This document shows, piece by piece, positions 1 through 29,065 of a stretch of DNA of 64,000 nt. The notes beneath the pieces are model-generated. The model was not told the origin of the DNA. It ran no database searches and was given only the letters and a program-made list of their open reading frames with translations. The position numbers were made by a program, and so were the translations under genes. Position 1 is the stretch's first letter; every line of letters starts with the position of its first letter. The stretch is from the NCBI RefSeq assembly GCF_988242995.1, contig NZ_OZ547043.1. One strand, 5' to 3'.

Positions 1-1962
1 GTAACCGAGCGCTGCCTGGGTGTTGCTATTATTCGGTTCCAGTTCCAGCGCGGCGCGCAAATCACTCACCGCCGCCGGGACATTATGACGTTGGCGATAA
101 ATTGTCGCCCGCGCAACGTAAGCGTTGGCAGAAGGCGCAATATTGATTGAGCGCGTGAGATCGTTCAGTGCGAGTTCCGGCTGACCAGGAATGTAACGTT
201 GCGCATGCAGCCACCAGTAGAGGGCATTGTTTCCCAGCCCACGTTGTTCTGCCTGCTGAAGCCAGCGATCGCGAGCCGCACCATTTCCTGCCGCCTGGGC
301 GGTATTGGCAGCAGCAAGCAGATCCTCATTGCTCATGTCGTGAAGACTGATTTTCTGCCAGGCCGCCAGTGCGGTGGCGTAATCCTCAACCTGATACGCC
401 TGATAGGCTACCGCACGATGTTGCCAGGCGTTCGGTTGTCGTTGTTCGGCCTGAAGCCATGCATACAACGCCACACCGGGTAGCGTGTCCCGATAACACT
501 TTGCCAGACGGTTCCAGGCGGCGGCATCGTAGGAAGGCGACATATCGCCCAGCAAGCGAACTATTGCCGGGCAATTATCTGCAATACCCGGCAACTGACT
601 TTGCCACTGACGTTGCTCCGCCAGCGGTAAGGGTTTCGATAAAATCGCCACCTTCGCCGGCGTTGCCAGGTAAGGATGACTTTCCAGCAGAGACGCCAGT
701 CGCGCCATTAAAGTCTGGCTGACACGCGCATCGCCCTGGAAAGGATAGCGTTGCAGCAATAAATCGGCAGCTTCGCGTGACTGCTCGTTCTGCATCAGTT
801 GCCAGGTCAGTTGATCCAGGCGGGTAAGATTTTCCGGTTCTTGCTGATACAGCAATCGTGCCAGACGCAGAGCTTCAGCCTTGTTATGGGTCGCTACGCT
901 AACGGTATAACGCTCCTCAAGCATTTCATTGGCGGGGAGGGTGGCGAGCAGTTTTTGCGCTGCGTCGTACTGACCTTCTTTTAACAGCACCGGTAGCGTC
1001 GCGCCAACAACATACTGGCGGTTGTCAGCAAACTGTACCGTATAATTCGCCAACGCCTGAACGGGGTTGCCGCTGTATTTAGATAACAGATAGAGCCAAC
1101 TTTTCTCTTGTGCGTCCGTGGTAAATAGCGGCGTATTTTCAATGAGATAACGCTGGAGGCGTGCTTTTTCGTCACGATAAGCCAGCGCGGTCGCGTAAGT
1201 AATATATGACTGCGGATCGGTGAAGATCCCCTGTGATTGCAGCGCCAGGATCCGATCGTCCAGCTGCCCGGCAAGAAGCACATCAAACCACTGGCGGCGT
1301 TCTGCCGCGCTTAATGTGTTCTGCTGGCGTGCTTCATTGTATAGCGTATCTGCCTGGGACCATTGCTTCAGGTAGATTGCCCGTTGCAGCAGATCGGTTC
1401 GCAGCGTTTTTCCTTCCGGCGATGCAGCAAACGTCGCATCGTTCAGTTGCGCTCTGGCGACAGGTAATTGTGCCAGCCGCAGGGCATTCTGCCCAACTTC
1501 ACTGCGACAACGCAGGGTCGGCGCAGCATCGCACGCTTTTTGCTGGGCAAGCAGTTCTTCAACAGTCGTAACGCTTTTCACTTCAACTGGAATAGCCGCC
1601 AGACTGCGCTCAAGTCGGGCATCTCCTGGGTGACGTTTCAGTTGATCCTCAAGCAACAGCCGCGCCCGGTCATCATGACCAAAATGGCGATAGGCTTCCG
1701 CAAGGTATAAAGTTAGCGGAATATTATCCGGCACCTGCTGGTGTATATATTCAAATTCGCGGATGGCGGTTGCTTCGTCGTTATTTTTCTGTGCCTTCAG
1801 CGCCTTGTCGAGACGGGGATAAATAACAAAATGGCGATAATCGCTCAGCCCCAGCTCTTCTGCGCTGGTGCCGATATTGTCTGCGAGTGCGCTGGTACTC
1901 AATAAAGACGTCAGCAGTAAACCAGACCATCCGATGACGCGATTAAGGTTATTCTCCTTCAT
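1..1962 (-). CDS. nfrA: Bacteriophage N4 adsorption protein A (NfrA), TPR outer-membrane protein; N-terminal ~654 codons only, 3' end lies beyond window start
   Basis: Minus-strand ATG at 1960-1962 preceded by AAGGAGAA-type RBS, translating MKENN...; overlaps nfrB stop by 14 bp as in K-12. Not in ORF track because no stop inside window. Confidence 0.85.
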   Translation of the reverse strand, partial: MKENNLNRVIGWSGLLLTSLLSTSALADNIGTSAEELGLSDYRHFVIYPRLDKALKAQKNNDEATAIREFEYIHQQVPDNIPLTLYLAEAYRHFGHDDRARLLLEDQLKRHPGDARLERSLAAIPVEVKSVTTVEELLAQQKACDAAPTLRCRSEVGQNALRLAQLPVARAQLNDATFAASPEGKTLRTDLLQRAIYLKQWSQADTLYNEARQQNTLSAAERRQWFDVLLAGQLDDRILALQSQGIFTDPQSYITYATALAYRDEKARLQRYLIENTPLFTTDAQEKSWLYLLSKYSGNPVQALANYTVQFADNRQYVVGATLPVLLKEGQYDAAQKLLATLPANEMLEERYTVSVATHNKAEALRLARLLYQQEPENLTRLDQLTWQLMQNEQSREAADLLLQRYPFQGDARVSQTLMARLASLLESHPYLATPAKVAILSKPLPLAEQRQWQSQLPGIADNCPAIVRLLGDMSPSYDAAAWNRLAKCYRDTLPGVALYAWLQAEQRQPNAWQHRAVAYQAYQVEDYATALAAWQKISLHDMSNEDLLAAANTAQAAGNGAARDRWLQQAEQRGLGNNALYWWLHAQRYIPGQPELALNDLTRSINIAPSANAYVARATIYRQRHNVPAAVSDLRAALELEPNNSNTQAALGY

Positions 1963-4186
1963 TTTCGGACTCCAGTTGCGCAACCTGTTCTGTGTTTAAA
2001 CCTGCTTTGAGTAATAGTGATTGCATCGAAACTTGTAATTCGCGTTGAATTGTCAGGACGCGATCCAACGTTTCCTGGCTGATAACGCCTTCGGTGACCA
2101 AAAACTTGCCGAGCGGCAGAGAACTACGTTCATGGCGCAATAACAACACGTTAATTGCTGAACGATTAATATGACCGAGTGTGGTCAGTATTTCGGCGAA
2201 CAGGAACTGATGCGGCACATATTGCCGCCAGATTTCACCGGCCTGCTGTTCCGTGAGCCACTGATGCTGAACCGCATTGTACAACATTGCCCGCGGATCG
2301 TGACCGCGTCGGCGCGCATACCAGTGGCGTAACCCCGTGACAATTTGTCCCCGCAGAACAATGACGTAACGCACTTTGCGTCCGACTTTACGCGTCAGGG
2401 CCGCCAGCGAAACCGGGTCAATACCATCTTCACTGCCGACAATTAACTCATCATTTTCCAGACGCAGCGGCAGTACTGCATAATGCAGCGCCACGGAGGC
2501 CGGCATTTCGGCAATCAGTGATGAAGGGATCTGCCAGGCGTCGATCGACTCCCACGCCACGCCGTTTTGCTCTGCCAGCGCCTGTGCCAGCTGTTCGGCG
2601 CTAATCAGCCCCTGCATCAGCATTGAACCGCCCAGGCGTAGACCTTCGACGCGATTACGCAGTGCTGTATCGAGTTGTTCTTCAGTGATGACCTGATTTT
2701 CCAGCAGGATTTGACCTAACGGACGCAACGAGCGGGTATCGCCAGTCACGCTGGGGAAGTCATGCGTTGTTTTATCCCACGCGACACGACGTGGATCGCC
2801 GTGTTGAAGTACCTGTTTTAACGCGCGCCAGTTGGCCATGAAGTTAATCAGGTTGCCCCAGAAAAGACGCAGGACAGATAGCAGCCCCTGCGTCAGGCCG
2901 TAGTAGCCAGTAACGAAAATCACCCGCTGCACGATGCGGTTAATCATCAAGCCAAAGTTTAGCCACAGCAGAGTCATTAACCATGCGCTGCCGCTGAAAA
3001 TAGAAAGGAAATGCCAGGCATCGGGCCACAAACTTTCATACGCCAGCAACAGCAAAAGCTGGATCATCACCAGCATCGCGAGGAAGCTGACAAAGTTACT
3101 GATTGCCCCTTTGCGGTCGCGCCAGAGAAAGTAGTTCAGCGTCAGGCTGGAGGTCCATTTGTGGGTTTTAAAGCCCTGGAAAACAATGCCGATGATCCAG
3201 CGAGATTTTTGTCGAACCGCAGTCGAAAAGGTATCGGGGAAATATTCGCGCACGCAGATCATGTTTGACGTCCGCGCGTGCTGTAAAAATTTACGCTGCT
3301 CGCGTTCTTTGGCTTCGTCCACCACCGGAAAACGGACAAAAATTTCCGTCATACCTTTTTCTTTCAGGCGGAAACCAATGTCGTAATCTTCAGTAAGACT
3401 CTGCACGTCGAAAGCAATACCGTCACCGTCAGCTAACAGTGCGGTCACGGCGCGGCGGCTGAAACAGGTGCCGACGCCTGCGCTGGGCACTTGTCCGGCG
3501 AGGGCTTCACGCACCGGAACATCTTTGCCATGCAGTTCTGAAAACTCATCAATGTAAGTCATGCTGGTGAAGTGCGTCCATTCGCGTTCGAACGGATACA
3601 CCGGGATCTGAATCAGATCTTTACGCTCGACCAGATAGTTGAACAGACGCAATTCCATCGGTGAAATTACGTCTTCGGCGTCATGCAGAATAAAACCAGC
3701 AAAAGCGAAATTGGCGCTACGCTCAAACTGGGTGATGGCGTCCAGCACGTTGTTCAGGCAGTCGGCTTTGCTGGTGGGGCCAGGACGCGCGCAGACTACC
3801 TTATGCACATTCGGGAAGCGAGCGCACACTTCGTCAACATCACGCTGAGTATCGGGGTCGTTGGGGTAGGTGCCAACAAAGATATGATAGTTTTCATAGT
3901 CGAGCGTGGTCGCCGCCAGCTCGGCCATATTGCCGATGACGCCCGTTTCATTCCACGCCGGAACCATAATCGCTAACGGTTTTTCATCTGGTTTATACAG
4001 TTCGCGGTAACTCATTCGCGGGTAGCGGCGATAAACACTCAACTTGCGTTTAATGCGGCGTACCCAGTAGACGACATCAATAAAAAAATCGTCCAGCCCG
4101 CTGATGAACATGATGACCGCTAACGTTATCGCGATTACTTTTAAGCCGTAGAGCCAGGTAGCAAAAACATCAAGAAGCCAGTCCAC
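1949..4186 (-). CDS. nfrB: Bacteriophage N4 adsorption protein B (NfrB), inner-membrane glycosyltransferase, 745 aa
   Basis: ORF track 745 aa, MDWLLDVFATWLYGLK..., full-length match to remembered NfrB; GTG start. Confidence 0.95.
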   Translation of the reverse strand: MDWLLDVFATWLYGLKVIAITLAVIMFISGLDDFFIDVVYWVRRIKRKLSVYRRYPRMSYRELYKPDEKPLAIMVPAWNETGVIGNMAELAATTLDYENYHIFVGTYPNDPDTQRDVDEVCARFPNVHKVVCARPGPTSKADCLNNVLDAITQFERSANFAFAGFILHDAEDVISPMELRLFNYLVERKDLIQIPVYPFEREWTHFTSMTYIDEFSELHGKDVPVREALAGQVPSAGVGTCFSRRAVTALLADGDGIAFDVQSLTEDYDIGFRLKEKGMTEIFVRFPVVDEAKEREQRKFLQHARTSNMICVREYFPDTFSTAVRQKSRWIIGIVFQGFKTHKWTSSLTLNYFLWRDRKGAISNFVSFLAMLVMIQLLLLLAYESLWPDAWHFLSIFSGSAWLMTLLWLNFGLMINRIVQRVIFVTGYYGLTQGLLSVLRLFWGNLINFMANWRALKQVLQHGDPRRVAWDKTTHDFPSVTGDTRSLRPLGQILLENQVITEEQLDTALRNRVEGLRLGGSMLMQGLISAEQLAQALAEQNGVAWESIDAWQIPSSLIAEMPASVALHYAVLPLRLENDELIVGSEDGIDPVSLAALTRKVGRKVRYVIVLRGQIVTGLRHWYARRRGHDPRAMLYNAVQHQWLTEQQAGEIWRQYVPHQFLFAEILTTLGHINRSAINVLLLRHERSSLPLGKFLVTEGVISQETLDRVLTIQRELQVSMQSLLLKAGLNTEQVAQLESENEGE

Positions 4187-4373: not shown

Positions 4374-5663
4374 CAGGGCAAGATTACGAAAGCCCGCTCC
4401 CCGCAAGGACTGACGCGAGATAGTTTCTGCCCATGGCTGCTTTTCGCATCTTACGTCTTAACCCTGCCTTGAATATCTTATCATTCGTTAAAATATTAAT
4501 AGCGATGTGCCGTATCCCTGAATATAATTCTGCGGCGTTTCCTCTTCTTATTTTGCAGTCGTCTTCATTCATTACCACGTCCAGACGCCAGTGCAGCTTA
4601 TTCTCCACGTGCCAGTGGTTTCGGATTGCTGTGGCGAACTTCTCTGCGGTTAAATCAGCAGAACTGATATAATATCTGACCGTCATTTCTGGCTCTTTCT
4701 TTTGTTCTGCTATTATTGACCGAAAGGAGACTGCCACACATAATTTCTTCAGTCCTTTCCATTCAAACGTGAAATCAATAAGTTCATCAGGGACATCGCA
4801 AACAATATGAAGACGGATTTCTTCTCTGCCGTGACTCTTTTCACTAATGGCGTAACTGTCATGCTCTGGATTATTTAATTCTTTCAGTGGAAATTTTTCC
4901 TCAAAGGCTTTATTAAGCCGCCCCTGGTTTCCTTTTACAGCGAATAAATAATCACCGCCCTGTTTTTGTATCTTCTCTGCAATATCTTTCTGGCAACCCA
5001 TCGCATCAGTTGTGATGATTTTTCCTTTAATATACAGCATGTTAAGAAGTTCTGGGATAGCTGTAATCTCATTAGATTTCTCATCCGTTCTGATCTGTCC
5101 GATGACCAGACTGTGCATTGTTGAGAACGCACTAATGACATGAATCGCTCCCCTGCGGCGACTCTTGTCATAAGAATGCCGGAGTGTTTTTCCATCGATT
5201 GCAATAACGTCTTTATCATCTGAAGTATGGCAATCTCGCATCCAGTTAATAAAGCACTCGTGAAATTTTGAAGGACTGATACAGGATACAACTCTGGCGA
5301 TGGTATCGTGAACAGGAATACCATTTTCAAAATCACCATATTGTTTTAAAAAATCGAGATGTGTTTCCCCAAAATCCTCTATATCTTCCCAACCTTCTGC
5401 ACCAGAAATAACGGCACAAATAGTCAACAGTAGAATATCCGATAATTTATGTTCCACTTTCCAGGCTTGTCTGTAATCGGGGATAATAGAAATATGCTCC
5501 ATCAATTTTTTAAGTTCCATTTTGTTCTCCTTAATTATGTAAGGAGTATTTGATCATGTATAAGCAATAAAAACAGCTTTAGGTAATGAGGAATATCTCA
5601 ATTTTTAAACATAAAATGCGAATTATTTAGTACAAAAAAGCAGCGTTACGTGATCTTTCCCTG
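4374..5663 (-). mobile_element. ISAs1-family insertion sequence (H-repeat / ISEc1-like), ~1.29 kb
   Basis: Contains H-repeat transposase ORF; imperfect terminal inverted repeats beginning CAGGG (left CAGGGCAAGATTACG near 4374, right ...ATCTTTCCCTG ending near 5663). Boundaries approximate. Confidence 0.6.
4384..5520 (-). CDS. ISAs1-family transposase (H-repeat-associated protein, YhhI-like), 378 aa
   Basis: ORF track [32 protein letters not shown]..., characteristic of Rhs-associated H-rpt proteins; strong AAGGAGA RBS upstream. Confidence 0.9.
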
Positions 5664-5786: not shown

Positions 5787-6068
5787 TTATTTTTTTATTT
5801 CATTATATCTGATAAAAAAAGTATTTAGTGCATCATGTTCATCTTGTGAGAACAATAAAATAATTTTATCCCATGAATGTCCTGTTACTCCATAATAGTC
5901 TTCAATATAAGATTGAAGCCTTATTAATATCTCAATATTGACGATTTCTTTTGGCTCTCTCATTTGCCATCCATCCAGGAAAGCTTTTAACGCCGATATG
6001 GTATGCCTGCTTAAATATAAAGCTGGTCTTTTTTCTATCATATCAATCAGTTTAACAATATCATTCAT
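5787..6068 (-). CDS. Putative Rhs immunity protein (RhsI-like), 93 aa, no recognised family
   Basis: Small ORF starting 2 bp after the rhs stop, AT-rich like the rhs 3' toxin-encoding end; this position is canonical for the cognate immunity gene. Function by position only. Confidence 0.55.
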   Translation of the reverse strand: MNDIVKLIDMIEKRPALYLSRHTISALKAFLDGWQMREPKEIVNIEILIRLQSYIEDYYGVTGHSWDKIILLFSQDEHDALNTFFIRYNEIKK

Positions 6069-6070
6069 AA

Positions 6071-9000
6071 TTAAAACCTTGATGGAGTAATGGTGTATTC
6101 GCCAGGAGAGTATATATCATTCAGCCAATCTTCATACTTTATACCAGAAGGATTCATATTATCAAAAACTGTATCACCTACTTTTATTGCTTCATGATGA
6201 CCATTAGTTGCTATATTTTTACCTATTCTATCACTCCATATATTGCCAAAGGCGCCTTGTTTATTTTTAGTTTCGAGTATGAGATGCTCACCATTTACCC
6301 CAGCTTGTTGCATTTTACTTTTTAACGCTGCGGCAAATTTATCGCATTGAAAAAGCTGTTTAAACTTATCACTTATTGTTGTTGCAAGATCCCTTGTTTT
6401 TGCGATATCGCAAATGGTTAATCCTAATGGATCAATATAACCAAGGGGATTATGAACATATGCATAATTGTTTATCCCGCCTCTCAGCCCTATCGGATCA
6501 CTCACCAGGTACATCCCGGTTTCCGGCTCGTAATACCGGAACCGGTTATAGCACAGCCCGGATTCCGCATCCTGCCACTGTCCTGCATACAGCAGGCCGG
6601 GGTCGGCTTCCGGGTCCAGCTCCCCACGCGGGTCCGGGTAGCCGGTGTCTGCGGGCAGGCTGAGTGCCAGCCCCCACAGGCTGGTCTGTCCCGGTCGCCA
6701 GACGGTTTTACCTTCACTGTTAAAGAGCATCAGCGGCCGGCCCGTCAGGTCGCTCACCGCATGATTCGTCCGCGTCACCCACTGCGGGGCCACGGACGGA
6801 TGCGCCTGCCGTACCCGGCTGCACTGCTGGCTTATCAGCTCAAAGCCGTTAAACACCAGGTGCCGCACACTGTACAGTTTATCATCGCGGTATTCCCGGA
6901 TTTCCGCAATACTGTCGCCATCCCACAGGTACGTAAAACGGATTTTCTTCCGGTCGCAGCGTTTCTCTGTTCGTCTGCCGCTGGCATCGTGGCGGTATTC
7001 CCACTGTTCACCCTGTGCGCTGCAATACCCGGTCAGCTGGTCCCGGCTGTCCCACCGGAACCGCTCTGTTTCCGGGCGGTAACCGTCACGGTGTCTGGTG
7101 CGGCTGACCATCCGGCCTGCGGCGTCATAGTCATACTGCGTGTTTCCGGCCTGTTTCAGCCGGTGGCCTCCGGCATACTGGTCAGTCTCTTCACTTATCC
7201 GGTGCCTGCCCGCAGACTGCGCCTTCAGGTAGCCGCAGCTGTCATAGCCATAAGTCTCATCGCCTTCGCCATAGCCCAGCCCGGTGCCTGAGGCTGTCAC
7301 CGCCGTGACCTGGCCGTTCCGGTCCAGCCGGTACTCCCGCCGTGTTTCCCGTCCGTAGTCTTCCCGGCTGGTGACAGCCGACACATTACCCGCGCTGTCG
7401 TAACGGTACTCCCGCACCAGTGAGGGGAGCAGCCCGCCCCATGTGGCTTCCGCCGGGAAAAATCCGGCGCGCTGGCTGACAGCCTGACCGGCTGCATTCC
7501 AGCCCTGCTCACAGGCAAAACCCCGGTTACTGTGCCGGAGCACTTCACGTCCTGCCTCATCACGGCTGAACGTCAGCGTCTCATCCCCCGGCAGGATAAC
7601 CTCCGTCAGTTCTCCGGCGGCGTTGTAGCGGTAGGTGGTTTTCAGCAGGGATTCACCGGGGTGTCTGTCGCGTTCATCTTCCGGTGGCAGGATACAGCGG
7701 ATGACGGTGTGTTCATCGGGGTGGTGGTATTCAATGGCCCGTCGGCCCTGAGTGGTGACATTCACCCGGCCGCGTTCGTCATAGCCGGTGCGCTGTGATG
7801 TGCCGTCCGGGCTGAAGATACCCGTCAGCCTGCCGGATTTGTCATACGCATACTGCGTTTTGCCTTCCGGCGTGATGACTTCTGCCAGGCGGCCTGCGGC
7901 GTCCCGGCTGTAGAGGATAGTTTCCTCCAGGCCGTTGACCCTGGCGGTACACAGGCCATCGGCGTCATAGCGGTAACGCCAGACCACGCCGCCCCAGTCA
8001 CGCTCTTCCGTCACCCGGCCGCAGTTATCCAGAACATAAAGATATGACTCACCCTGCGGATTGATGACTTCTGTCAGTTGCAGCGTGTCTTTATCGTAGC
8101 GGTACTGCCAGCGGTGGCCTTCACCGTCCGTTCGCGCCACCGGCAAATCAAACGGGCCGTACTCCATTGTCCAGACAACGCCATTGCCGTCCGTCCAGGC
8201 CAGCAGGTTGCCGTGGCGGTCGTTGCGGAATCCTTCCGCGCCGGTTCCAGTGCGCTCAAGGCCGCTCAGTTTATGGTGCTGCTGCCACTGCAACCGCACT
8301 GACTGACCGCCGGGGCCGCGCATCTTCACCGGCAGGTCGTGACCACTGTATTTGGTGTGGTGTTCGCGGCCCATCACGTCGGTGAGTGTTTCCGGCCGGT
8401 TGTGGCGGTCGTACTCTATGCCCAGACGCCGTTCATCCTGGCGGAATATCCCCGACAGCAGCCCCTGAGCGGTGTATGCCAGCCGGGTCTCTTCGCCCTG
8501 TGGCGACACCTGACTTACCGGCAGGCCGCGTTCATCACACTGCTGTGTCCACGTCTGCCCGGCAGGGTCGGTGATGTTGCTGAGCAGGCCGCGCTCATCA
8601 TAGCGGTACAGCCACTCCGCGCCGTCTGCCGCCGTGTAACGGCTTAACTGACCGAGTGCGGCGTTGTCTTCAAATTTCTCCACCCGCCCGGCAGGGGAGT
8701 GGCGGGCCAGCAGGTGATGGAATTCATCCCATTCATACGTGGTGGTACTGCCGTCCGGCGCGTCTTCCCGCAGGATATTGCCGTCAGGATCATAGTAATA
8801 ACGGTGAATGCCCTTGCCGTCCGTCACGGTGGTGCAGCCGTCCCCATAGTCCAGCGTGGCGTTGTAATAGCCCTCCGCCCCGGTGACGGTCACGCACCGG
8901 CCCTGTGTATCGTAGGTGAAACGGCTCCACGTCTGGTCGTTATCGGACCAGCGGATGATCCGGTCCGCATCGTCGTACTCATAAAACAGGTGGTAGTCCA

Positions 9001-10735
9001 GCCGCGCATCCGCTTCTGTCAGCCGCCCCCGCGCATCCTGTTCGTAGGTCGCCAGCGTCTGTATGCCGTTATCCGTGCGGTGAATGGCTTTCAGGTAGCC
9101 GCTGGCGTGGTACGTCAGTTTAAGCCGGATCCCGTCAGTGTGACTGACACCTGTGATCCGGTACTGGCTGTCGCGCTCAAACGTGATGCGGTTGCTGGCG
9201 GTGTCGCTCATCCCGCCCAGCATGTACATCCGGTCTGCGGGGCTGTGTGCCAGACGGTCATCGCTGGTATCGTCAGTCACCGGGTGGCGCAGACGCATTC
9301 CCGGAAAGGCGTCATAAAAGAAGCGGCTGCTCAGTGCATCCCTGTCGAACAGCTCCAGGTAATCATCGCGGCGGCGCAGAATGTACTGGGCGTGATACGG
9401 GTTAACCGCCGTATCACTGTCACCGTCGAAGGCAAATCTCAGCGTGGTTCCCTGGCTGATGATATCCACCCGGTTTCCCTGTTCACGCACCCAGGCGTAT
9501 TCGCTCCAGGAGTCGCTCCAGCCCACGCCCGTCAGGCCATGCAGTGGCAGTACAGAACTGTGGAAACGGGTGAAGGAGAGGGGGAGTGTCTGGCCCAGCG
9601 TAAAGTCGGTACGTTCGTCGCAGTATGCGCCGGTTACCGGATCGACAGGATCTGTTACCCATCTGATGACTTTATTGGCAATACTTTTTAACGACTTACC
9701 TGTTTTCCCCAGCAACGCGCCGAGCTTTGCCCCCAGCAGCTTCCCGCTTTTCCCCAGCAGGTTTCCCAGTTTGCCGAGTCTCGCCAGATTCTTCAGTTTT
9801 CCCAGCAGTCCCGCTGGCGGCAGAAGATAGCTGGCTATCGTTATTCCCCCCAGGATCATTCTCTGCCACGGCGGGAACTCCGGCTGGATATCCAGATAGG
9901 TGACCTGCTCACCCCCAATAAAGACGTCCGGCGAACCTTCCACGATTGCCGCACTGCACTCCAGTTTGTCCCCCTTGCGTGCAGCAGGCTGATTGTTGAT
10001 AAAGACGTTGCTGCTGCCCTGGGCTATCCTCGGCGGTTTGTTCTCCTTGTCGCAGAGCGCCGTGTCCTCACCGGCTTCCGGGAAATCCACGTCTTTTTTG
10101 ATTTCGCCACGCCCGCCCACCATGGTGGCAAACTCCATTAATACCGGACCGGCGGGAAACAGAAGCGATGCGCCGGCGCTGACGCGATCCATAATACCGG
10201 CATTGCTGTCCGTCAGGGTGATAACAGCGTTCCCCCAGGCCTTCGCCAGTGGTACTGCTTTTTCCGCTGCCGATTCAAGCAGGTCAGTGGCAATATCCCC
10301 CCATGAAGGTTCCCCCTGTGGTAGAGAGGGTATTGCTTCAGTCAGGGGAGGAGGGGGAAGGGTGACGGCGGCCCTGGCAGCGGGCTTTCCGTTAATTTTT
10401 ACATTTTTAGAACCAGTATTGATGGCCCCGTCCTTGTCACAAAAGCTGTTTATCCATGACTCAAGCTGGTTCTGTTTCTCCTCCACATAATCACTCGCCT
10501 TATAGCTGGCATACATCAGCGCAGGCACCAGAACCAGCGCATAAGGGCCGGTGGCGCAGGCGGCCATAATCAGGCAACCTTCTGCGATAGTTACTATCGC
10601 CCCCAGCACGGCCCCTGCCAGTGCCCCCAGAAAACTTTTATGCTGAATTTCATCGTCCAGTCTGGCGGCAGGTGGGCCGGACTTCTTTGCTGCCAGCATC
10701 TCTGCAATGGCTTTGTCGTTGGCTGCCCGTTTCAT
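6071..10735 (-). CDS. rhs: Rhs-family T6SS effector: N-terminal prePAAR motif ([10 protein letters not shown]) and transmembrane segment, PAAR domain, YD-repeat core, DPxGL cleavage motif, unrecognised 115-aa C-terminal toxin domain; 1554 aa
   Basis: ORF track 1554 aa; repeated YD/RYxYD motifs, PAAR motifs, ...[27 protein letters not shown] near C-terminus. Start could instead be Met13 (about 10699). Confidence 0.9.
   Translation of the reverse strand: [1554 protein letters not shown]
6074..6418 (-). other. Variable C-terminal toxin domain of the Rhs protein (residues after DPLGL), AT-rich, family not recognised
   Basis: Base composition shifts from the GC-rich rhs core to AT-rich downstream of the DPxGL motif, typical of displaceable Rhs-CT/immunity cassettes. 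Confidence 0.7.
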
Positions 10736-10800
10736 CTAGCTGGCGACCATCGCCCGCTGCGACTGCATTCGCATTGCCAGCGTACCGCCTGCGGTCGCTC

Positions 10801-10886
10801 CCTGTGGCCCGCTCTGTCCTTCGCTCATTGGTTTTATCCCTGTGGCCCGCTCTGTCCTTCGCTCATTGGTTTTATCCCTGTGTCTG
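10801..10886. repeat. Direct tandem repeat, 38-bp unit CCTGTGGCCCGCTCTGTCCTTCGCTCATTGGTTTTATC x2 plus partial third copy, in the eagR-rhs intergenic region
   Basis: Read directly from sequence at 10801-10838 and 10839-10876, then CCTGTG. Confidence 0.85.
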
Positions 10887-11348
10887 TCAGCGCGGCTGGT
10901 CCTGTTTGATATTCTTCTCCGGCGGTAATGGTGTGAAGCTCTTTATCACATCGAGCAGCATCGTCTTTTGACTGTTCTTAAGGGGTAAAGACGTACTGAA
11001 CGTGAAGGTCAGCAGCGTATCACCACGCCGCTGAAATACGGCTATCTGGCTAATCCGCCCCTGATTCCCTTCATCTTCCGGACCGTTCCAGGAATAATCC
11101 AGCAGCCAGGCCGGGGCCTCTGCCAGAGTGATTTCCCGGCAGGCATGTTCGGTGTAACCGTCCAGCTTGCCCTGGTACAGCGCCAGCGTTTCCTTGTACA
11201 GTTCTGGTGTCAGGGTTCCCTGTGGAACGGGTTCGCGGGTAATGACCAGGTTGATGCCACTGTTATCTGTGGACACCAGGACCTGCATTGACTGATCCTG
11301 CCATTGCGATGGCAGCTGAATATGACCTTCATTAAAAGTGAACTGCAT
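10887..11348 (-). CDS. DUF1795-family (EagR-like) effector-associated chaperone, 153 aa
   Basis: ORF MQFTFNEGHIQLPSQWQDQSMQVLVSTDNSGINLVITREP... lying between vgrG and a prePAAR Rhs effector; AGGGAG RBS. Confidence 0.75.
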   Translation of the reverse strand: MQFTFNEGHIQLPSQWQDQSMQVLVSTDNSGINLVITREPVPQGTLTPELYKETLALYQGKLDGYTEHACREITLAEAPAWLLDYSWNGPEDEGNQGRISQIAVFQRRGDTLLTFTFSTSLPLKNSQKTMLLDVIKSFTPLPPEKNIKQDQPR

Positions 11349-11375
11349 AAAATACTCCCTGATAATTTGAATGAA

Positions 11376-13277
11376 TCAGTTAATGAAAACAGAACCGCCC
11401 ACGATGGTGATGCCATCCTTCGACAGCCTGATTACCGTCGATTCCCCGACCTGTAGCTGAATGCCATCCGGCGTCAGCGCAATTTTGCTTTCCTCCACGG
11501 CCAGCATAATTTGCTTAATTGCCGTATAAGCCTGTATACCGTCGCCTTCGCCACCATTGTTTACAGCGTCAACATGCACTGAACCGGCAATCGTGCCTCT
11601 GTCCTGAAAAACATCCTCAGATAAAGACCCTTTTAGTACGCCTGTGATTTTGTGGCCTTTTTCCACCGTAAGAAGGCGGTTACCTTCCTGGATCGTGACC
11701 GTCTGGTCATTTTTTACGGTTTCGCGGTGATCGTGTTTTACGGTGGTGGTACGGTCGTTGAGTACCTCGGTATCCATGTTCTTCTGGGCGTGGATGTAGA
11801 CCTGTTCTTTCCCTGTCGCATCGTCAAACTTCAGCTCGTTAAACCCGCTGCCCATATATGTTTTGGAGCGGATGGTCATCTGCGTCTTCGTTCCCGGCAG
11901 GCTGCCCGGCGAGCGGTTATCTTCGTGGTAGGTGCGCCCCATAATGATCGGCTGGTCCGGATCGCCGTTGAGGAAGTCCACAATGACCTCCTGACCCACA
12001 CGCGGTATCGCCAGATTGCCGAACCCGGCTCCTGCCCACGCCTGTGCCACACGGATCCAGCACGAACTGTCCTGGTCTGCCGGGTTATAGCGGTCCCAGT
12101 TGAATTTCACCCGCACCCGGCCATGCTCGTCGCAGAAGATTTCCTCTCCCGCAGGCCCCGTCACGACGGCGCTCTGTGGACCGTCCACTGACGGCTTTGG
12201 CTTCGGCTGTGGCCGCCACGTCCGGTCTGCCGGGATTACCACAAACTGGTTCTCCAGCGCCGTCCCCGCGCCCCGCCGTCCCGGCACCGCCTGCGGCTGT
12301 TCGCCGTGCAGTTCGCTCGCCACCACCTGCCATTCCCGGTTCAGGTTCGCCTGCGGATGCTCCGTCAGCACAATTCGCCGTCCCGGCCATATCTCCGGCG
12401 AGCGGCTCATTCCCCGCGCGGTTTCTGCGTTGTTTCGCCAGCCGTCCATCTGCCAGCGGGCAAAGTTCTGCCCGTGGGCGCTCTTGAAACGCCCGGGGTA
12501 GTCATACACTTCATACTGCGTGCGCTGGTAGTCCTGGTGCTGGCCTTCCTGTTCAAAACGTCCGGCCCAGCCGGGGCGTTTAAAGGTGTAGTCTTTGGTC
12601 ACCACGGAAGAAGGGCGGATTTGTGCGCTGTAGCGGAACTGGCTGATGCAGAGGGTGCTCACCTCGGTACGGGTGTTCGGGTTCCATGGGATTTCAAAAG
12701 ATTCGGGCAGATGGCGGACTGTGTCGCACAGCACCAGGCTCTGGTCGGTACTTTTGTAAGCATGCTCCTCATAAAAGAAGATGCCTTCCTCCGCCGCCAT
12801 CCGGCACAGGAAATCGTAATCAGTCTCACCGTACTGGACACAAAACTCACGGGAAGGATGCGGCTCGCTGAACAGCGGACTCCATTCGGTCACCCCGTTT
12901 TCCTGCAACATCGTGCCGAGGATGCTTCTGATGTCCTCGTTCTGGAAGATACGGAAGTTCTGACGCAGTCCTGCCCGCCACAGCGGCGGGCGCACCTTCA
13001 TGCTGTACAGCATCTGGTTTTTGTCGTTCTCCCCGAGTTCAAACCAGGTCACCACGCCTTTCACCCGGCGCTGTACGTCATCGCCCTGCCATACCGTCAG
13101 GTAGGCCATTTTGTCCAGCACCTGCGCAAATTCAAGGTAGAGAAACTGCTGACTGACCAGAGAAAGGTCAAGGGAAAAAAGTGAAGAGAGTGACTGGGTG
13201 AGATGAAAGGAGACCACCGCAAAAGCGTCCGGTGGCAGGCCGTCCACTTCCAGTGTGAAACGTAATCCGGTTGACAT
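11376..13277 (-). CDS. vgrG: Type VI secretion system spike protein VgrG (Rhs-element Vgr protein), 633 aa
   Basis: ORF track translation contains MSTGLRFTLEVDGLPPDAF... ending ...KDGITIVGGSVFIN; start moved to Met13 (ATG at 13277 with GGAGG RBS). Confidence 0.9.
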   Translation of the reverse strand: MSTGLRFTLEVDGLPPDAFAVVSFHLTQSLSSLFSLDLSLVSQQFLYLEFAQVLDKMAYLTVWQGDDVQRRVKGVVTWFELGENDKNQMLYSMKVRPPLWRAGLRQNFRIFQNEDIRSILGTMLQENGVTEWSPLFSEPHPSREFCVQYGETDYDFLCRMAAEEGIFFYEEHAYKSTDQSLVLCDTVRHLPESFEIPWNPNTRTEVSTLCISQFRYSAQIRPSSVVTKDYTFKRPGWAGRFEQEGQHQDYQRTQYEVYDYPGRFKSAHGQNFARWQMDGWRNNAETARGMSRSPEIWPGRRIVLTEHPQANLNREWQVVASELHGEQPQAVPGRRGAGTALENQFVVIPADRTWRPQPKPKPSVDGPQSAVVTGPAGEEIFCDEHGRVRVKFNWDRYNPADQDSSCWIRVAQAWAGAGFGNLAIPRVGQEVIVDFLNGDPDQPIIMGRTYHEDNRSPGSLPGTKTQMTIRSKTYMGSGFNELKFDDATGKEQVYIHAQKNMDTEVLNDRTTTVKHDHRETVKNDQTVTIQEGNRLLTVEKGHKITGVLKGSLSEDVFQDRGTIAGSVHVDAVNNGGEGDGIQAYTAIKQIMLAVEESKIALTPDGIQLQVGESTVIRLSKDGITIVGGSVFIN

Positions 13278-14020
13278 AGCAACCTCCGTGAAAATGAATA
13301 ATAATCCGCACATATTGCATGTACAACATGTCGGGTAATGAGATAAGCGGGCCGGCTTCAGGTGTTACCGGGGAATATCAGAAAAGTGTCATGGTTATGT
13401 GAGAATTTTGTCCGGGATTTTACTTCAGAGAAACGGGGGTCTGTTGAGTCAACAAAATAATCACAAACTCAACTGACGGGTTCACGATGTTATTAAGGAC
13501 AGGCTCGTATATTACATCGAGTAACAAAAAAACACCTGATATGCAAAGTTAAACCAATATTCATAATGTCTTTTTATTCACAGTAATAAATAATTCAATA
13601 AACATCATTGAAATGAATGATGGTTTGTATAAGGAATATACGCTACCGCCCCACCCTGATAACATGATCTGCACATTGCCATCTTAACGTCGTTAGACGC
13701 TGGCTTAATAGTGAATATTTTAAATTAGGAATTTATCAAATCCACTTGATAAATAGATTGTGTGAATAATATAGAGATTAATGATGCCTGACTGCGCTTT
13801 ATATTATAGCCGATTCTTTTATAGTGATGAAAATTTAGTAATAGCATTGTGCTCTACAATTGGTAGAAACACGAATTTGATTAAATTGCATATCTAAATA
13901 TCTCGTAAATATCCGAAAATGAATAACCTTCGATTTCAGACGACCAATAAGGTCTTCCCTGTTTTATTGATAAATAATAACAGAAGGCGATACATCACTC
14001 TTTGAGTTTGAACTAACTAA

Positions 14021-19287: not shown

Positions 19288-22200
19288 ATGATTGAATGGA
19301 TTATTCGTCGCTCGGTGGCGAACCGTTTTCTGGTACTGATGGGCGCGTTGTTTCTGAGTATCTGGGGCACCTGGACCATCATTAACACGCCAGTGGATGC
19401 GCTGCCGGATCTCTCCGATGTGCAGGTGATTATTAAAACCAGCTATCCCGGTCAGGCACCGCAAATCGTTGAAAATCAGGTGACTTATCCGCTAACCACC
19501 ACCATGTTGTCGGTGCCTGGCGCGAAGACTGTGCGCGGTTTCTCGCAGTTTGGCGACTCTTATGTGTATGTCATTTTCGAAGATGGCACTGATCCGTACT
19601 GGGCGCGTTCGCGGGTGCTGGAGTACCTCAACCAGGTACAGGGTAAGCTCCCTGCGGGAGTCAGCGCCGAGCTGGGGCCAGATGCCACGGGTGTTGGCTG
19701 GATCTATGAATATGCACTGGTGGATCGCAGCGGTAAGCACGATCTTGCCGATTTACGCTCATTGCAGGACTGGTTTCTCAAATATGAGCTGAAAACCATT
19801 CCTGACGTTGCGGAAGTGGCGTCGGTAGGCGGTGTGGTGAAAGAGTATCAGGTGGTTATCGATCCTCAGCGTCTGGCGCAATATGGCATCAGTCTCGCCG
19901 AAGTAAAAAGCGCGCTGGATGCTTCAAACCAGGAAGCGGGCGGTTCGTCGATCGAATTGGCGGAAGCGGAATATATGGTGCGCGCCAGCGGCTATCTGCA
20001 AACGCTCGACGACTTTAATCACATCGTTTTAAAAGCCAGTGAAAATGGCGTGCCCGTTTATCTGCGCGATGTTGCGAAGGTCCAGATTGGCCCGGAGATG
20101 CGCCGGGGCATTGCCGAACTAAACGGCGAAGGCGAAGTGGCGGGCGGGGTGGTGATCCTGCGCTCCGGCAAAAACGCCCGAGAAGTAATCGCCGCCGTGA
20201 AGGACAAACTGGAAACGCTGAAAAGCAGTCTGCCGGAAGGCGTGGAGATAGTTACAACATACGATCGCAGCCAGCTCATTGACCGCGCCATCGACAACCT
20301 CAGCGGCAAGTTGCTGGAAGAGTTTATTGTGGTGGCGGTAGTCTGTGCGCTGTTTCTCTGGCATGTGCGCTCGGCGCTGGTGGCGATTATTTCGTTGCCG
20401 CTGGGGTTGTGTATTGCTTTTATTGTCATGCACTTTCAGGGACTGAACGCCAATATTATGTCGCTGGGCGGTATTGCTATTGCCGTCGGGGCGATGGTCG
20501 ATGCCGCTATCGTCATGATCGAGAATGCGCATAAACGGCTGGAAGAGTGGCAGCACCAGCATCCTGACGCCACGCTGGATAATAAAACGCGCTGGCAGGT
20601 GATCACCGATGCATCTGTTGAAGTGGGGCCGGCGCTGTTTATCAGTCTGCTGATTATCACGTTGTCGTTTATCCCGATCTTCACCCTGGAAGGGCAGGAA
20701 GGGCGTCTGTTTGGCCCGCTGGCGTTCACCAAAACGTATGCGATGGCGGGTGCGGCGCTGCTGGCGATCGTAGTGATCCCTATCCTGATGGGCTACTGGA
20801 TCCGTGGCAAAATTCCGCCGGAAAGCAGTAACCCGCTCAATCGCTTTTTGATTCGTGTTTATCATCCGCTGTTGCTGAAAGTACTGCACTGGCCGAAAAC
20901 CACGCTGCTGGTGGCGGCGCTTTCGGTGCTGACGGTTCTCTGGCCGCTCAATAAAGTTGGCGGGGAATTTTTACCGCAGATCAATGAAGGCGACTTGTTG
21001 TATATGCCATCGACGCTGCCGGGGATTTCCGCAGCAGAGGCGGCGAGTATGCTGCAAAAAACCGACAAGCTGATTATGAGCGTACCTGAAGTGGCGCGGG
21101 TATTTGGCAAAACCGGGAAAGCGGAAACCGCCACCGATTCTGCTCCGCTGGAGATGGTAGAAACGACCATCCAGCTTAAGCCGCAGGATCAGTGGCGGCC
21201 AGGCATGACGATGGACAAAATCATTGAGGAACTGGATAACACCGTGCGTCTGCCGGGGCTGGCGAATCTGTGGGTGCCGCCAATTCGTAACCGTATCGAT
21301 ATGCTCTCAACCGGCATTAAAAGCCCCATCGGCATTAAAGTTTCCGGCACTGTGCTGGCGGATATCGACGCGATGGCGGAGCAAATTGAAGAAGTGGCGC
21401 GAACGGTGCCAGGCGTAGCTTCTGCGCTTGCCGAGCGTCTGGAAGGTGGGCGCTATATCAACGTTGAGATTAACCGTGAAAAAGCCGCGCGTTACGGTAT
21501 GACGGTGGCGGATGTGCAATTGTTTGTGACATCTGCGGTGGGCGGGGCGATGGTTGGCGAAACGGTGGAAGGGATTGCCCGTTATCCAATTAATCTGCGT
21601 TATCCGCAAAGCTGGCGCGATAGTCCGCAGGCGCTGCGCCAGTTGCCGATTCTGACGCCGATGAAGCAGCAAATCACCCTGGCAGACGTGGCTGACGTTA
21701 AAGTCTCTACCGGACCGTCGATGCTGAAAACCGAGAATGCGCGCCCGACGAGCTGGATTTATATCGATGCCCGCGATCGTGACATGGTGTCGGTGGTTCA
21801 CGATTTGCAAAAAGCGATAGCTGAAAAAGTGCAGTTAAAACCGGGCACCAGCGTGACATTCTCCGGGCAGTTCGAGCTACTGGAGCGCGCCAACCATAAG
21901 CTGAAACTCATGGTGCCGATGACGCTGATGATCATCTTCGTGCTGTTGTATCTGGCGTTCCGTCGGGTGGGCGAAGCGTTGCTGATTATCAGCAGCGTAC
22001 CGTTTGCGCTGGTGGGCGGCATCTGGTTGCTGTGGTGGATGGGCTTTCATCTTTCCGTGGCGACGGGCACCGGTTTTATTGCCCTTGCCGGGGTCGCCGC
22101 CGAATTTGGCGTGGTGATGCTGATGTATTTACGTCACGCCATAGAGGCCGAGCCGTCGTTGAATAATCCGCAAACATTCAGCGAGCAGAAGCTGGATGAG

Positions 22201-28254: not shown

Positions 28255-28320
28255 ATAACGGCGGGTGCCTGAAGCTTTCCGGTTTCAGGTTTACTCTGAG
28301 GTCTGGAAAGATGAAGCCCC
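28255..28320 (-). ncRNA. Predicted Sok-like antisense RNA for hok copy 1 (position inferred from hok/sok architecture)
   Basis: Inference only: antisense to the hok leader / mok start region; no promoter verified. Confidence 0.25.
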
Positions 28321-28409
28321 AGGAGATATTTCTATCAACCCTGGGGCTGCCACTCCAAACCCAAACAATTTGGATGGTAGTCCCTTCTTCGCATGGAGGC
28401 AATATAAAC

Positions 28410-28562
28410 ATGCTGACGAAATATGCCCTTGCGGCAGTCATAGTGCTGTGTTTGACGGTGCTGGGATTTACGCTTCTGGTCGGAGACTCGCTGTGTGAGT
28501 TTACGGTGAAGGAACGTAATATTGAGTTTAAGGCTGTTCTCGCTTACGAACCGAAGAAGTAG
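28410..28562 (+). CDS. hokE: Hok-family toxin (HokE-like), 50 aa, copy 1
   Basis: [50 protein letters not shown]; GGAGG RBS; in-frame upstream mok-like extension in ORF track (28311). Confidence 0.8.
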
Positions 28563-28757: not shown

Positions 28758-28823
28758 ATAACAGCGGGTGCCTGAAGCTTTCCGGTTTCAGGTTAACTCT
28801 GAGGTCTGGAAAGATGAAGCCCC
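28758..28823 (-). ncRNA. Predicted Sok-like antisense RNA for hok copy 2 (position inferred)
   Basis: Inference only, by symmetry with copy 1. Confidence 0.2.
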
Positions 28824-28912
28824 AGGAGATATTTCTATCAATCCTGGGGCTGCCACTCCGAACCTCAACAACTCGGATGGTAGTCCCTTCTTCGCATGGA
28901 GGCAATATAAAC

Positions 28913-29065
28913 ATGCTGACGAAATATGCCCTTGTGGCAGTCATAGTGCTGTGTTTAACGGTGCTGGGATTTACGCTTCTGGTCCGCGACTCGCTGTGTG
29001 AGTTTACGGTAAAGGAACGTAATATTGAGTTTAAGGCTGTTCTCGCTTACGAACCGAAGAAGTAG
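28913..29065 (+). CDS. Hok-family toxin (HokE-like), 50 aa, copy 2
   Basis: [50 protein letters not shown]; differs from copy 1 at two residues. Confidence 0.8.

Follow-up and report, generated by a model that had tools for sequence, protein, structure and literature searches.

An amber codon near the 5' end of rhs in an Escherichia coli T6SS toxin module

Comparison with homologous loci shows that the rhs gene of a vgrG-eag-rhs-immunity set is interrupted near its 5' end and that its native start is ATG 10828. The set lies in a stretch of 64,000 nucleotides of contig NZ_OZ547043.1, hereafter the window, and it is almost certainly a standard E. coli T6SS toxin module, in type class I prePAAR effector/Eag chaperone, inserted between cusS and nfrB. 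This module type is already known and widely annotated in E. coli. Taken as a whole, the explanation that combines this module identity with an interrupted rhs gene is very probable; its last step, a reduced supply of a delta-1-31 effector, has about an even chance. The coordinates of the features are collected in Table 1.

Table 1. Features of the vgrG-eag-rhs module, in window coordinates
Feature	Coordinates	Strand	Remarks
vgrG (T6SS spike)	13277..11376	-	633-aa form from ATG 13277; NCBIfam TIGR03361 E=6.6e-188, TIGR01646 E=3e-131
eag, DUF1795/DcrB-family chaperone gene	11348..10887	-	153 aa; Pfam PF08786
Perfect 38-bp tandem duplication, 2.2 copies	10882..10799	-	Tandem Repeats Finder: period 38, 100% match
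10-codon mini-ORF from duplication copy 1	10866..10834	-	MSEGQSGPQG, then stop
Native rhs 5' end	10828..10736	-	ATG 10828, 30 sense codons MSEGQSGPQGATAGGTLAMRMQSQRAMVAS, then TAG
rhs remainder, 1554 codons (native codons 32-1585)	10735..6071	-	ATG abuts TAG; family-defining elements all retained
prePAAR motif AARxxDxxxH	10669..10640	-	ORF aa 23-32; Pfam prePAAR_I PF25799
Hydrophobic Gly/Ala-rich TMD region, about two helices	10633..10508	-	ORF about aa 35-76; predicted Eag-binding site
Split PAAR domain	10441..9899	-	Motif 1 aa 99-122, insertion aa 124-227, motif 2 aa 235-279
Post-PAAR hydrophobic helix	9874..9794	-	Kyte-Doolittle 1.62; conserved in alignment A2
Gly/Lys-rich LGKxG stretch after post-PAAR helix	9802..9683	-	
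Tox-PL-2 (papain-fold toxin 2), C-terminal toxin domain	6382..6113	-	Pfam PF15643 E=2.7e-22
Candidate immunity ORF, 93 aa	6068..5787	-	Starts 2 nt past rhs stop

The 5' end of rhs

Native codon 31 of rhs is TAG (10738..10736), which replaces the CAG codon of the conserved Gln31 of relatives. This stop directly abuts ATG 10735, the native Met32, so that the two codons form a UAG-AUG junction with a spacing of 0 nt. In the homologues from Escherichia, Salmonella, Citrobacter and Kluyvera, rhs starts 14-21 nt after eag and 31 codons upstream of the position equivalent to 10735, and the N-termini follow the pattern MSEGxxGPQGA...VASQ-MKRAAND. The resulting 53-residue extension ahead of the prePAAR motif, Gln31 included, is conserved across these four genera. 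Kluyvera has Lys at position 32 and Salmonella has Thr at position 44; therefore, neither Met32 nor Met44 is a conserved initiator.

The same region carries a second alteration, a perfect 38-bp tandem duplication, bordered by the 8-nt microhomology CACAGGGA, through which rhs gains a second copy of its ribosome-binding site, its ATG and its first nine codons. The mini-ORF that begins in copy 1 of the duplication stops 5 nt before the native ATG 10828.

The original prediction, made from the DNA letters, had placed the start of Rhs at Met1 (10735) or Met13 and had remarked that Met1 has no obvious Shine-Dalgarno sequence. The remark was borne out, as no Shine-Dalgarno was found at ATG 10735; the reason is that 10735 is native codon 32 rather than the native start, and the ambiguity of the start likewise arises from the TAG at codon 31. 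The proposed starts did not stand, since neither is native. An intact gene, as the original prediction implied, would have to use Met1 (10735) or Met13 (10699) as the evolved start of a 1554- or 1542-aa effector, with the upstream 150 nt as ordinary intergenic DNA. The ORF from 10735 is indeed uninterrupted with all domains inside it, and gene callers on some assemblies choose this start. However, the DNA before 10735 continues the frame and specifies the N-terminus conserved in the homologues, with CAG to TAG as the sole difference, the residues at positions 32 and 44 vary among the genera as described above, Met13 has no Shine-Dalgarno (-1.7 kcal/mol), and the intact 1585-aa sister alleles L029 and L032 carry the same toxin. 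An intact gene that starts at Met1 or Met13 is thus contradicted by the comparative data and is very improbable.

The Eag chaperone and the class I prePAAR effector

The 153-aa ORF upstream of rhs, proposed earlier to be a DUF1795 protein, matches Pfam PF08786 (DcrB, formerly DUF1795) over the whole model (1-127 of 127, E=7.9e-28), and its gene is preceded by the Shine-Dalgarno AGGGAG (-7.7 kcal/mol). In phmmer searches the protein matches EagT6 (6xrf, 1tu1; E=5e-5) and gives no match to SciW at E<=10. In a Foldseek search with an AF2 model of pLDDT 67, the top places go to EagT6 and SciW, which rank above DcrB (6e8a) with E about 4e-5 and TM 0.5-0.6. The gene lies 3' of vgrG and directly 5' of the prePAAR effector gene, and no signal peptide, lipobox or hydrophobic leader was found at the N-terminus MQFTFNEGHIQLPSQWQDQS. 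A DcrB-like envelope protein that adjoins rhs by coincidence would agree with the name of the Pfam family, with the NCBI label 'DcrB-related protein' and with the presence of Salmonella DcrB among the fold matches; it is, however, extremely unlikely given the missing signal peptide and lipobox, the higher rank of EagT6/SciW in the sequence and fold searches, and the vgrG-eag-rhs order common to Escherichia, Salmonella, Citrobacter and Kluyvera.

The Rhs product is 1554 aa long here and 1585 aa in its native form. A product identical to the 1554-aa ORF has precomputed Pfam matches to PAAR_motif, DUF6531, TEN_YD-shell, RHS_repeat and Tox-PL-2, and the Rhs-associated core TIGR03696 is matched with E=8.7e-22. 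Near the N-terminus, Pfam prePAAR_I (PF25799) covers aa 23-69 (E=9.9e-6), and in native numbering residues A54, A55, R56, D59 and H63 of the motif are invariant in alignments A2 and A3. This region aligns to Rhs1NT (6xrr) and Tre23 (7pq5). The bare AAR..D...H pattern is unspecific, with 2 occurrences in the six-frame translation against 0.09 expected, the second being out of frame in cusA. Immediately after the motif, the TMD region reaches a Kyte-Doolittle 19-residue mean of 2.13, the maximum of the whole protein and above the usual threshold of 1.6, while a simple Hessa-scale sum has its minimum at +1.4 kcal/mol, which is marginal; this transmembrane call is made from hydropathy scales only. 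Weak glycine-zipper Pfam matches also fall in this region.

PAAR sequences follow, with Pfam PF05488 matched twice, at aa 99-122 (E=0.0065) and aa 235-279 (E=2.4e-10), and with a partial match to NF033420 under its cut-off. The two motifs are separated by a subfamily-specific insertion of about 104 aa (aa 124-227, nt 10366..10055). The insertion is present in the relatives from Escherichia, Salmonella, Citrobacter and Kluyvera and in P0182/P0183, and sequence comparison showed that it is absent from P0061, P0062 and Tre23. Together with the conserved 53-aa extension, it may mark off an enterobacterial subfamily, as yet uncharacterised, that has a further surface for interaction. Further downstream, the weaker hydrophobic helix (1.62) corresponds to the 'postPAAR' region of Photorhabdus Rhs1, which is a second EagR-binding site in that protein (PMC8636562), and not to a class II TMD2. 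At the C-terminus, the cleavage motif DPIGL...DPLGL precedes Tox-PL-2, with the first DPIGL at 6499..6476.

Hence the prePAAR signature, the hydrophobic stretch and the PAAR motifs named in the original prediction were all recovered, and its assignment to the Eag-chaperone-dependent T6SS effectors passed each of the domain and gene-order tests. Neither of the two outcomes that were to count against it occurred, since the 153-aa ORF matches DUF1795 and the hydrophobic stretch exceeds a hydropathy threshold. The class I features are a prePAAR motif, a single TMD region, a PAAR domain after the TMD and an Rhs/YD shell with a toxin, accompanied by an eag gene directly upstream of rhs, and each was found. 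The window rhs lacks an uninterrupted frame from the native start, which is needed for normal expression but not for homology.

All four genes (vgrG, eag, rhs and the 93-aa ORF) lie on the minus strand, and no T6SS core cluster was found within the 64-kb window. The ATG of vgrG at 13277 has a strong Shine-Dalgarno (GGAGG, -10.7 kcal/mol) and gives a 633-aa VgrG, the length annotated in relatives; the mechanical ORF reaches further, to ATG 13313. The three-gene order vgrG-eag-rhs is kept in all four genera, and 2,302 of 5,426 complete E. coli genomes (~42%) have this order with like annotations and a homologue at the cusS-nfrB site. The 93-aa ORF, which has no Pfam or NCBIfam match, is a candidate immunity protein by position only; it lies downstream of every Tox-PL-2 allele examined, and the exact protein was found on 493 contigs.

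Among characterised systems, SciW-Rhs1 of Salmonella Typhimurium, a class I prePAAR effector with its Eag chaperone (Ahmad et al. 2020, eLife, PMC7773334; PDB 6XRB, 6XRR), shares the order of eag then rhs, the AARxxDxxxH motif, one TMD region before PAAR and an Rhs cage with a C-terminal toxin; the window Eag model matches the fold of SciW, and the Rhs N-terminus aligns to Rhs1NT. On the other hand, the sequence similarity is weak (E=0.057 for Rhs1NT, and the phmmer result for SciW given above), and the window rhs has the PAAR insertion and the amber at codon 31. In Rhs1 the Asp and His are Asp9 and His13, so the motif begins at residue 4 (PMC7773334), whereas in the window it begins at native residue 54, after the conserved extension. 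The best sequence match of solved structure is the Tre23 protein of the Photorhabdus laumondii VgrG-EagR-Rhs1(Tre23) system (Jurenas et al. 2021, Nat Commun, PMC8636562; PDB 7PQ5), with E=1.2e-13 over prePAAR-TMD-PAAR; it also shares the vgrG-eagR-rhs-immunity order, about 30 residues before the motif and a post-PAAR hydrophobic helix. Tre23 differs in having an ADP-ribosyltransferase toxin instead of Tox-PL-2, in lacking the PAAR insertion and in lying inside a T6SS core cluster, whereas in the window the module stands as an orphan island, with cusS and nfrB on either side. EagT6 of the Pseudomonas aeruginosa EagT6-Tse6 pair (class II; PDB 6XRF, 1TU1) is the closest solved homologue of the window Eag in both sequence and fold, and the prePAAR motif logic is the same, but Tse6 is about 450 aa long with two TMD regions and no Rhs cage, unlike the class I effector of the window.

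By analogy with these homologues, from which every delivery step for the window module is drawn, an Eag dimer would shield the TMD of the effector, and probably the post-PAAR helix as well, in the producer cytoplasm. The Asp and His of the prePAAR motif would complete the PAAR fold, and the VgrG tip would thereby be capped. Firing of the T6SS would deliver the complex into the target cell, where the TMD would aid passage of the encaged toxin across the inner membrane and Rhs autoproteolysis at the DPxGL motif would free Tox-PL-2, while the 93-aa neighbour would protect the producer.

Distribution and authenticity of the amber allele

The sister alleles at this E. coli locus, namely L029 and L032 (1585 aa, Tox-PL-2), L027 (1619 aa, AHH) and L003 (1620 aa, zincin-like toxin), share the context cusS-vgrG-eag-rhs-immunity-(ISAs1)-nfrB. 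L027 and L029 encode an Eag protein identical to that of the window, and the Rhs of L029 differs from the window Rhs at 28 aa over 1554 residues. Unlike the window, these alleles read CAG as codon 31, and their start region is present only once.

The TAG and the duplication recur together in identical form on at least 10 independently assembled contigs (NCBI, ENA gut metagenomes, Logan) with several Rhs haplotypes, and one contig has the TAG alone, without the duplication. The allele was found on at least 17 contigs, and one Logan contig occurs in at least 20 runs. Since the allele recurs in independent assemblies and gut metagenomes, it is real. A sequencing or assembly artefact in an otherwise intact gene would accord with the results of the database scans, in which neither the duplication nor a T at codon 31 was found in any of the 5,426 complete RefSeq E. 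coli genomes, and neither feature was found in JGI metagenomes or GTDB representative genomes; such an artefact is nevertheless very improbable given the identical recurrence on those contigs and haplotypes.

The TAG allele lies upstream of at least four Rhs haplotypes with two toxins (Tox-PL-2 and AHH), whose ORFs are intact at 1554 or 1588 codons, and no second disabling mutation was found in four TAG haplotypes of about 4.7 kb each. Across the rhs 5' region, L027 and L031 have only two differences, the TAG and the duplication, which are less than ~130 bp apart. TAG-bearing genomes are near-identical upstream, with 0-1 SNP in about 5.6 kb, and therefore the allele may be too young for second hits. 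Elsewhere in E. coli the locus is often decayed: L001 has an internal stop and is flagged as a pseudogene by the NCBI pipeline, L002 has become joined to envY, and truncation or fusion is seen in many homologues. A further case is the sister allele L033, which has CAG but is cut short at 1098 codons past Met32; that the ORFs of the TAG haplotypes are intact while this sister is truncated was counted for residual function. Among NCBI proteins, no accession corresponds to the exact 1554-aa product.

Consequences of the amber codon

Translation from the native start would yield only a 30-aa peptide, and the 1554-codon remainder would be made only if ribosomes that have ended at the UAG begin again at the AUG next to it. 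The 0-nt spacing of this junction permits termination-reinitiation, which in E. coli persists at +2 nt with a loss of 5-70% and has mostly disappeared by 38 nt (PMC10666635). Restart at ATG 10735 may be inefficient, because no Shine-Dalgarno precedes it. As judged by comparison, residues 1-31 are not family-defining, and 22 residues would still precede the prePAAR motif in the truncated product; P0061 and P0062 begin only 3-4 residues ahead of AAR. The conservation of the 53-residue extension across four genera suggests that it has a function, and the truncation would halve it. The reading that we adopt, at about an even chance, is that less of the effector is made, as a delta-1-31 form still competent for Eag and VgrG.

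It is quite possible, if on balance slightly disfavoured, that the gene is instead a dead pseudogene, in which the amber prevents Rhs from being made, whether by inefficient restart or by polarity or decay of the mRNA; the ORF would then be a recent relic, and the duplication would have hitch-hiked neutrally. The pseudogene flag on L001 and the missing protein accession point this way, as do the lack of a Shine-Dalgarno at ATG 10735, the conservation of the extension and Gln31, and the frequent degradation of the locus in E. coli; moreover, the near-identity of the carriers upstream would have left little time for more decay. On the other hand, the stop abuts an AUG at a spacing permissive for restart, the four haplotypes contain no second disabling mutation, the allele is widespread, and the translation-start region has been hit by two independent mutations close together.

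Besides reduced synthesis of the delta-1-31 effector, a more doubtful possibility is that the amber and the 38-bp duplication are not signs of decay but, jointly, an expression variant that was selected, namely a leader cascade that works by termination-reinitiation. Ribosomes would pass in order through the 10-codon mini-ORF, the 5-nt gap, the 30-codon leader ORF and the UAG-AUG junction to the effector ORF. If this were so, the cell would make the delta-1-31 prePAAR effector in a small and tightly coupled amount, which Eag would still load onto VgrG, with the duplication as a compensatory or tuning mutation.

Architecture of the effector module and its place in class I

The 153-aa ORF lying between vgrG and rhs, which had been proposed to encode a DUF1795 protein, matches Pfam PF08786 (DcrB, formerly DUF1795) over the whole model (E = 7.9e-28). 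By sequence, EagT6/PA0094 are the nearest solved relatives (E = 5e-5), and its AlphaFold2 model, of moderate quality (pLDDT 67), gives EagT6 and SciW as the top Foldseek matches (E ~4e-5, TM-score 0.5-0.6), both above DcrB. Neither a signal peptide nor a lipobox is present, as would fit a cytoplasmic chaperone and not the lipoprotein DcrB. In general, every property of an Eag chaperone that could be checked was found in it.

Features of the module and other elements of the window
Feature	Coordinates	Strand	Remarks
vgrG ORF	13313..11376	minus	relatives annotate a 633-aa protein from 13277
153-aa ORF (eag)	11348..10887	minus	
eag-rhs spacer	10886..10736	minus	151 nt
Tandem duplication	10799..10882		perfect, 38 bp
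Mini-ORF	10866..10834		10 codons
Pre-motif extension	10670-10828	minus	native Rhs aa 1-53
Rhs ORF	10735..6071	minus	1554 codons
PAAR insertion	10055-10366	minus	Rhs ORF aa 124-227
Gly/Lys-rich stretch	9683-9802	minus	
Tox-PL-2 domain	6113-6382		
93-aa ORF	6068..5787	minus	begins 2 nt past the Rhs stop
ISAs1-family (ISEc1-like) transposase	5520..4384	minus	378 aa; between immunity candidate and nfrB; bounds the island
nfrB	4186..1949	minus	
Second AAR..D...H match	21195-21224	plus	frame 2, inside cusA
sok, first copy	28263-28418	plus	Rfam RF01794, 85 bits
sok, second copy	28766-28921	plus	Rfam RF01794, 82 bits
ES036 sRNA	29866-29907		Rfam
STnc70 sRNA	58178-58271		Rfam
rnk leader	62076-62184		Rfam

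In the Rhs ORF, the predicted prePAAR and PAAR elements were both recovered: Pfam prePAAR_I matches residues 23-69 (E = 9.9e-6), PAAR_motif matches residues 99-122 and 235-279, and DUF6531 is also matched in the N-terminus, which aligns weakly with that of Salmonella Rhs1 (Rhs1NT, 6XRR; E = 0.057). The hydrophobic stretch of the original prediction, residues 35-76, has the highest hydropathy anywhere in the protein (Kyte-Doolittle mean 2.13) and is only marginally hydrophobic on a crude Hessa-scale sum (+1.4 kcal/mol); judged by these scales, it is a predicted TMD. The post-PAAR helix is conserved and is joined to the Rhs shell by a Gly/Lys-rich stretch of repeated LGKxG-like units, whose length differs among genera in the alignment of relatives' N-termini. 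The rest of the ORF contains YD-shell, RHS repeats and the Rhs-associated core (TIGR03696), after which come a DPIGL...DPLGL motif and a C-terminal Tox-PL-2 toxin domain (E = 2.7e-22). The adjoining 93-aa ORF, for which no family match was found, is an immunity candidate by position.

A class II architecture was rejected, as the protein is a 1554-aa Rhs whose post-PAAR hydrophobic helix corresponds to the class I Rhs1 postPAAR element. The bare AAR..D...H pattern was likewise set aside as evidence: it also matches, by chance, an out-of-frame site in cusA and is thus not diagnostic, and the prePAAR assignment is secure because of its context. All class I prePAAR properties that could be checked were found, except an uninterrupted frame from the native start, so the original observation is confirmed, and support is given to its reading as a class I prePAAR effector with an Eag chaperone. 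Such an arrangement was known before and is annotated as a matter of routine, both by the Pfam prePAAR_I family and by the NCBI names of the neighbours (DcrB-related protein, VgrG).

In class I, the effector is an Rhs protein in which a single TMD region precedes PAAR, and the prePAAR Asp and His are required for the PAAR-VgrG interaction (Ahmad et al. 2020, PMC7773334). The Photorhabdus EagR protein binds both TMD1 and a postPAAR helix; there the prePAAR-PAAR unit is seated at the tip of VgrG, and autoproteolysis frees the toxin from its cage (Jurenas et al. 2021, PMC8636562); the kinetics of Eag release have also been described (PMC12881460). The proteins of the window, in which all the corresponding parts are present, probably act by the same mechanism.

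Within class I, the Rhs protein falls into an enterobacterial subfamily marked by two features that are uncharacterised. The first is an extension of ~53 aa ahead of the prePAAR motif (MSEGQxGPQGAxAGGxLAMRM..ASQMKRAAND...), which AlphaFold2 predicts to be helical at low confidence and in place of which 3-50 residues of unrelated sequence are found in other class I effectors. The second is an insertion of ~104 aa between the PAAR motifs, comprising a Pro-rich linker, predicted helices and a GPV..E....M.GG.G motif. The insertion has been conserved among orthologues from Escherichia, Salmonella, Citrobacter and Kluyvera as well as in two distant clusters (P0182, P0183), is absent from Tre23 (Photorhabdus Rhs1) and from the relatives P0061 and P0062, and has no Pfam match; among 1.84 billion representative proteins, it is spanned only by close relatives and P0182/P0183 (~48-50% identity). 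An AlphaFold2 model of the restored 390-aa N-terminus has a mean pLDDT of 50, with only the prePAAR and PAAR strands at 70-79, so that neither feature can be interpreted in it.

On the side opposite to nfrB, the module is flanked by cusS, cusR and cusCFBA, with cusA 99% identical to that of E. coli, which identifies the window as part of an E. coli chromosome. There is no T6SS core cluster in the 64-kb window, the remainder of which is ordinary chromosome. The mechanically called vgrG ORF opens at ATG 13313 (MCGLLFIFTEVAMSTG...), probably an over-extension; ATG 13277 has a strong GGAGG Shine-Dalgarno sequence, and relatives annotate the corresponding Met as the start. Elsewhere, the sok antitoxin RNA occurs as two copies in tandem, which imply duplicated hok/sok-type toxin-antitoxin loci, and the other Rfam matches are listed in the table.

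An amber codon and a duplication at the rhs start

The original prediction had left the Rhs start between Met1 (ATG 10735), described as having no obvious Shine-Dalgarno sequence, and Met13. The description of Met1 is correct, but neither residue is a conserved initiator. Annotations of E. coli relatives place the start of the rhs CDS 20 nt past the eag stop, and all retrieved E. coli homologues begin MSEGPGGPQGATAGG...VASQMKRAAND. The same start is found in Salmonella, Citrobacter and Kluyvera orthologues, adjoining Eag proteins of 79-87% identity. Together with the replacement of native position 32 (Met1) by Lys in Kluyvera and of position 44 (Met13) by Thr in Salmonella, this start identifies both as internal methionines. 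In the window, the frame opened by the native ATG at 10828 reads MSEGQSGPQGATAGGTLAMRMQSQRAMVAS*, ending in a TAG whose three bases directly precede ATG 10735. E. coli relatives read ...GTCGCCAGC CAG ATG AAA CGG... at this site, and the encoded Gln31 is invariant in the Escherichia/Salmonella/Citrobacter/Kluyvera set; in the window, a C-to-T change has thus turned native codon 31 into a nonsense codon.

The start region is also altered by a perfect tandem duplication, through which the ribosome-binding site, the ATG and nine codons occur twice, and whose copies are bounded by an 8-nt microhomology, CACAGGGA. The first copy gives rise to a mini-ORF that ends with a TAA 5 nt short of the native ATG. 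The missing Shine-Dalgarno sequence at Met1 is therefore explained: an amber codon interrupts the gene directly before it, and the start region is tandemly duplicated. Both lesions make expression of the effector uncertain. Shine-Dalgarno pairing energies did not discriminate among the candidate starts (native start -4.9 kcal/mol, background mean -4.3 kcal/mol), and the RNA fold of the eag-rhs spacer showed no structure above shuffled controls (z = 0.38). A scan of 10500-13800 for promoters and terminators found none in the spacer, with promoter-like counts at chance level, and the duplication has not obviously created a promoter.

Recurrence and spread of the allele

Two megablast queries, in which each 28-mer was made to include the variant base or the duplication, found neither lesion in 5,426 complete RefSeq E. 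coli genomes, 2,302 of which contain the vgrG-eag-rhs module; the eag of the window is a minor allele, with a best match of 95.7% in this set. Exact-pattern scans for the TAG context and the duplication junction gave no match in JGI metagenomes or GTDB representative genomes. By exact-protein look-up, an identical Eag protein was found on 124 contigs and the identical 1554-aa product on at least 17, including NCBI assemblies and ENA human-gut metagenomes, and one Logan contig with this product was seen in at least 20 runs. Where the DNA was read, TAG and duplication occur together in 11 relatives' loci (L005, L007, L009, L011-L013, L019-L022 and L024), neither occurs in L004, L006, L008 and L010, and L023 has the TAG without the duplication. 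This recurrence, together with L023, indicates that the two mutations are real, separable and inherited; read-through or artefact keeps the small share of probability left by the two readings weighed below. No tRNA gene was found in the window, which was inspected for an amber suppressor.

With longer flanks, TAG and duplication stand upstream of at least four Rhs haplotypes: the window type, L028 (10 aa differences), L034 (24 aa differences) and L031, which has a different AHH toxin and whose protein past the TAG is identical to that of the intact sister allele L027. The ORFs of all four are uninterrupted, at 1554 or 1588 codons; in the CAG sister allele L033, the ORF is cut short at 1098 codons after Met32. 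The genomes compared are closely related, differing by 0-1 SNP upstream of the Rhs core; their variation further downstream reflects recombination of the kind usual at Rhs loci. In close relatives (L027/L031 versus the window), one and the same eag and rhs 5' region leads into different toxins, either Tox-PL-2 with the 93-aa neighbour or an AHH nuclease-type domain with a 173-aa neighbour; this swap, typical of Rhs, is seen on TAG and CAG backgrounds alike. The transposase, intact in the window, is split into 235-aa and 100-aa products in L019, L021 and L022, which carry the same Rhs allele.

Residual function of the interrupted effector

Translation from the native start would end after 30 codons, and the remainder of Rhs would be made only by restart at the AUG abutting the UAG. 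In E. coli reporter pairs, termination-reinitiation loses 5-70% at +2 nt and 80-100% at +38 nt (Huber et al. 2023, PMC10666635); by these distances the 0-nt spacing is permissive for restart, though without a Shine-Dalgarno sequence. The restart product would retain 22 residues ahead of the prePAAR motif. The motif begins at residue 4 in Salmonella Rhs1, P0061 and P0062 start 3-4 residues ahead of AAR, and Tre23 has ~30 residues ahead of it; the lost residues 1-31 are not family-defining. We give an even chance that a reduced amount of an effector lacking residues 1-31 is made and still works.

That the rhs gene is silent is a serious possibility, which we place somewhat short of even. The 53-residue extension is conserved across four genera, and the locus often decays in E. 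coli (L001, L002 and L033; P0004, P0016, P0032 and P0040), by internal stops, truncation, or deletion-fusion of the 5' part to nfrA, nfrB, envY or ISAs1 sequences. Moreover, the carriers are too closely related for their intact ORFs to prove selection. The permissive spacing speaks against silence, and the nature of the lost residues speaks for residual function. An argument for selection from the position of the mutation was rejected: 3 of the 529 one-step nonsense paths in the intact allele lie upstream of prePAAR and directly before an ATG, and since the mutation is equally likely under neutrality and selection, its position does not alter the balance.

For annotation, the case shows that an ORF with a family signature near its N-terminus can look intact and yet be the 3' remainder of an interrupted gene, and that comparing the upstream "intergenic" DNA with relatives settles a start-codon puzzle beyond the reach of Shine-Dalgarno inspection. 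As an interbacterial weapon of E. coli the module is routine, and the allele is a modest curiosity. If the effector works despite its nonsense codon, which abuts an AUG and precedes all essential elements, the conserved 31 N-terminal residues would be dispensable, and among the Rhs genes flagged as pseudogenes some would be active after all.
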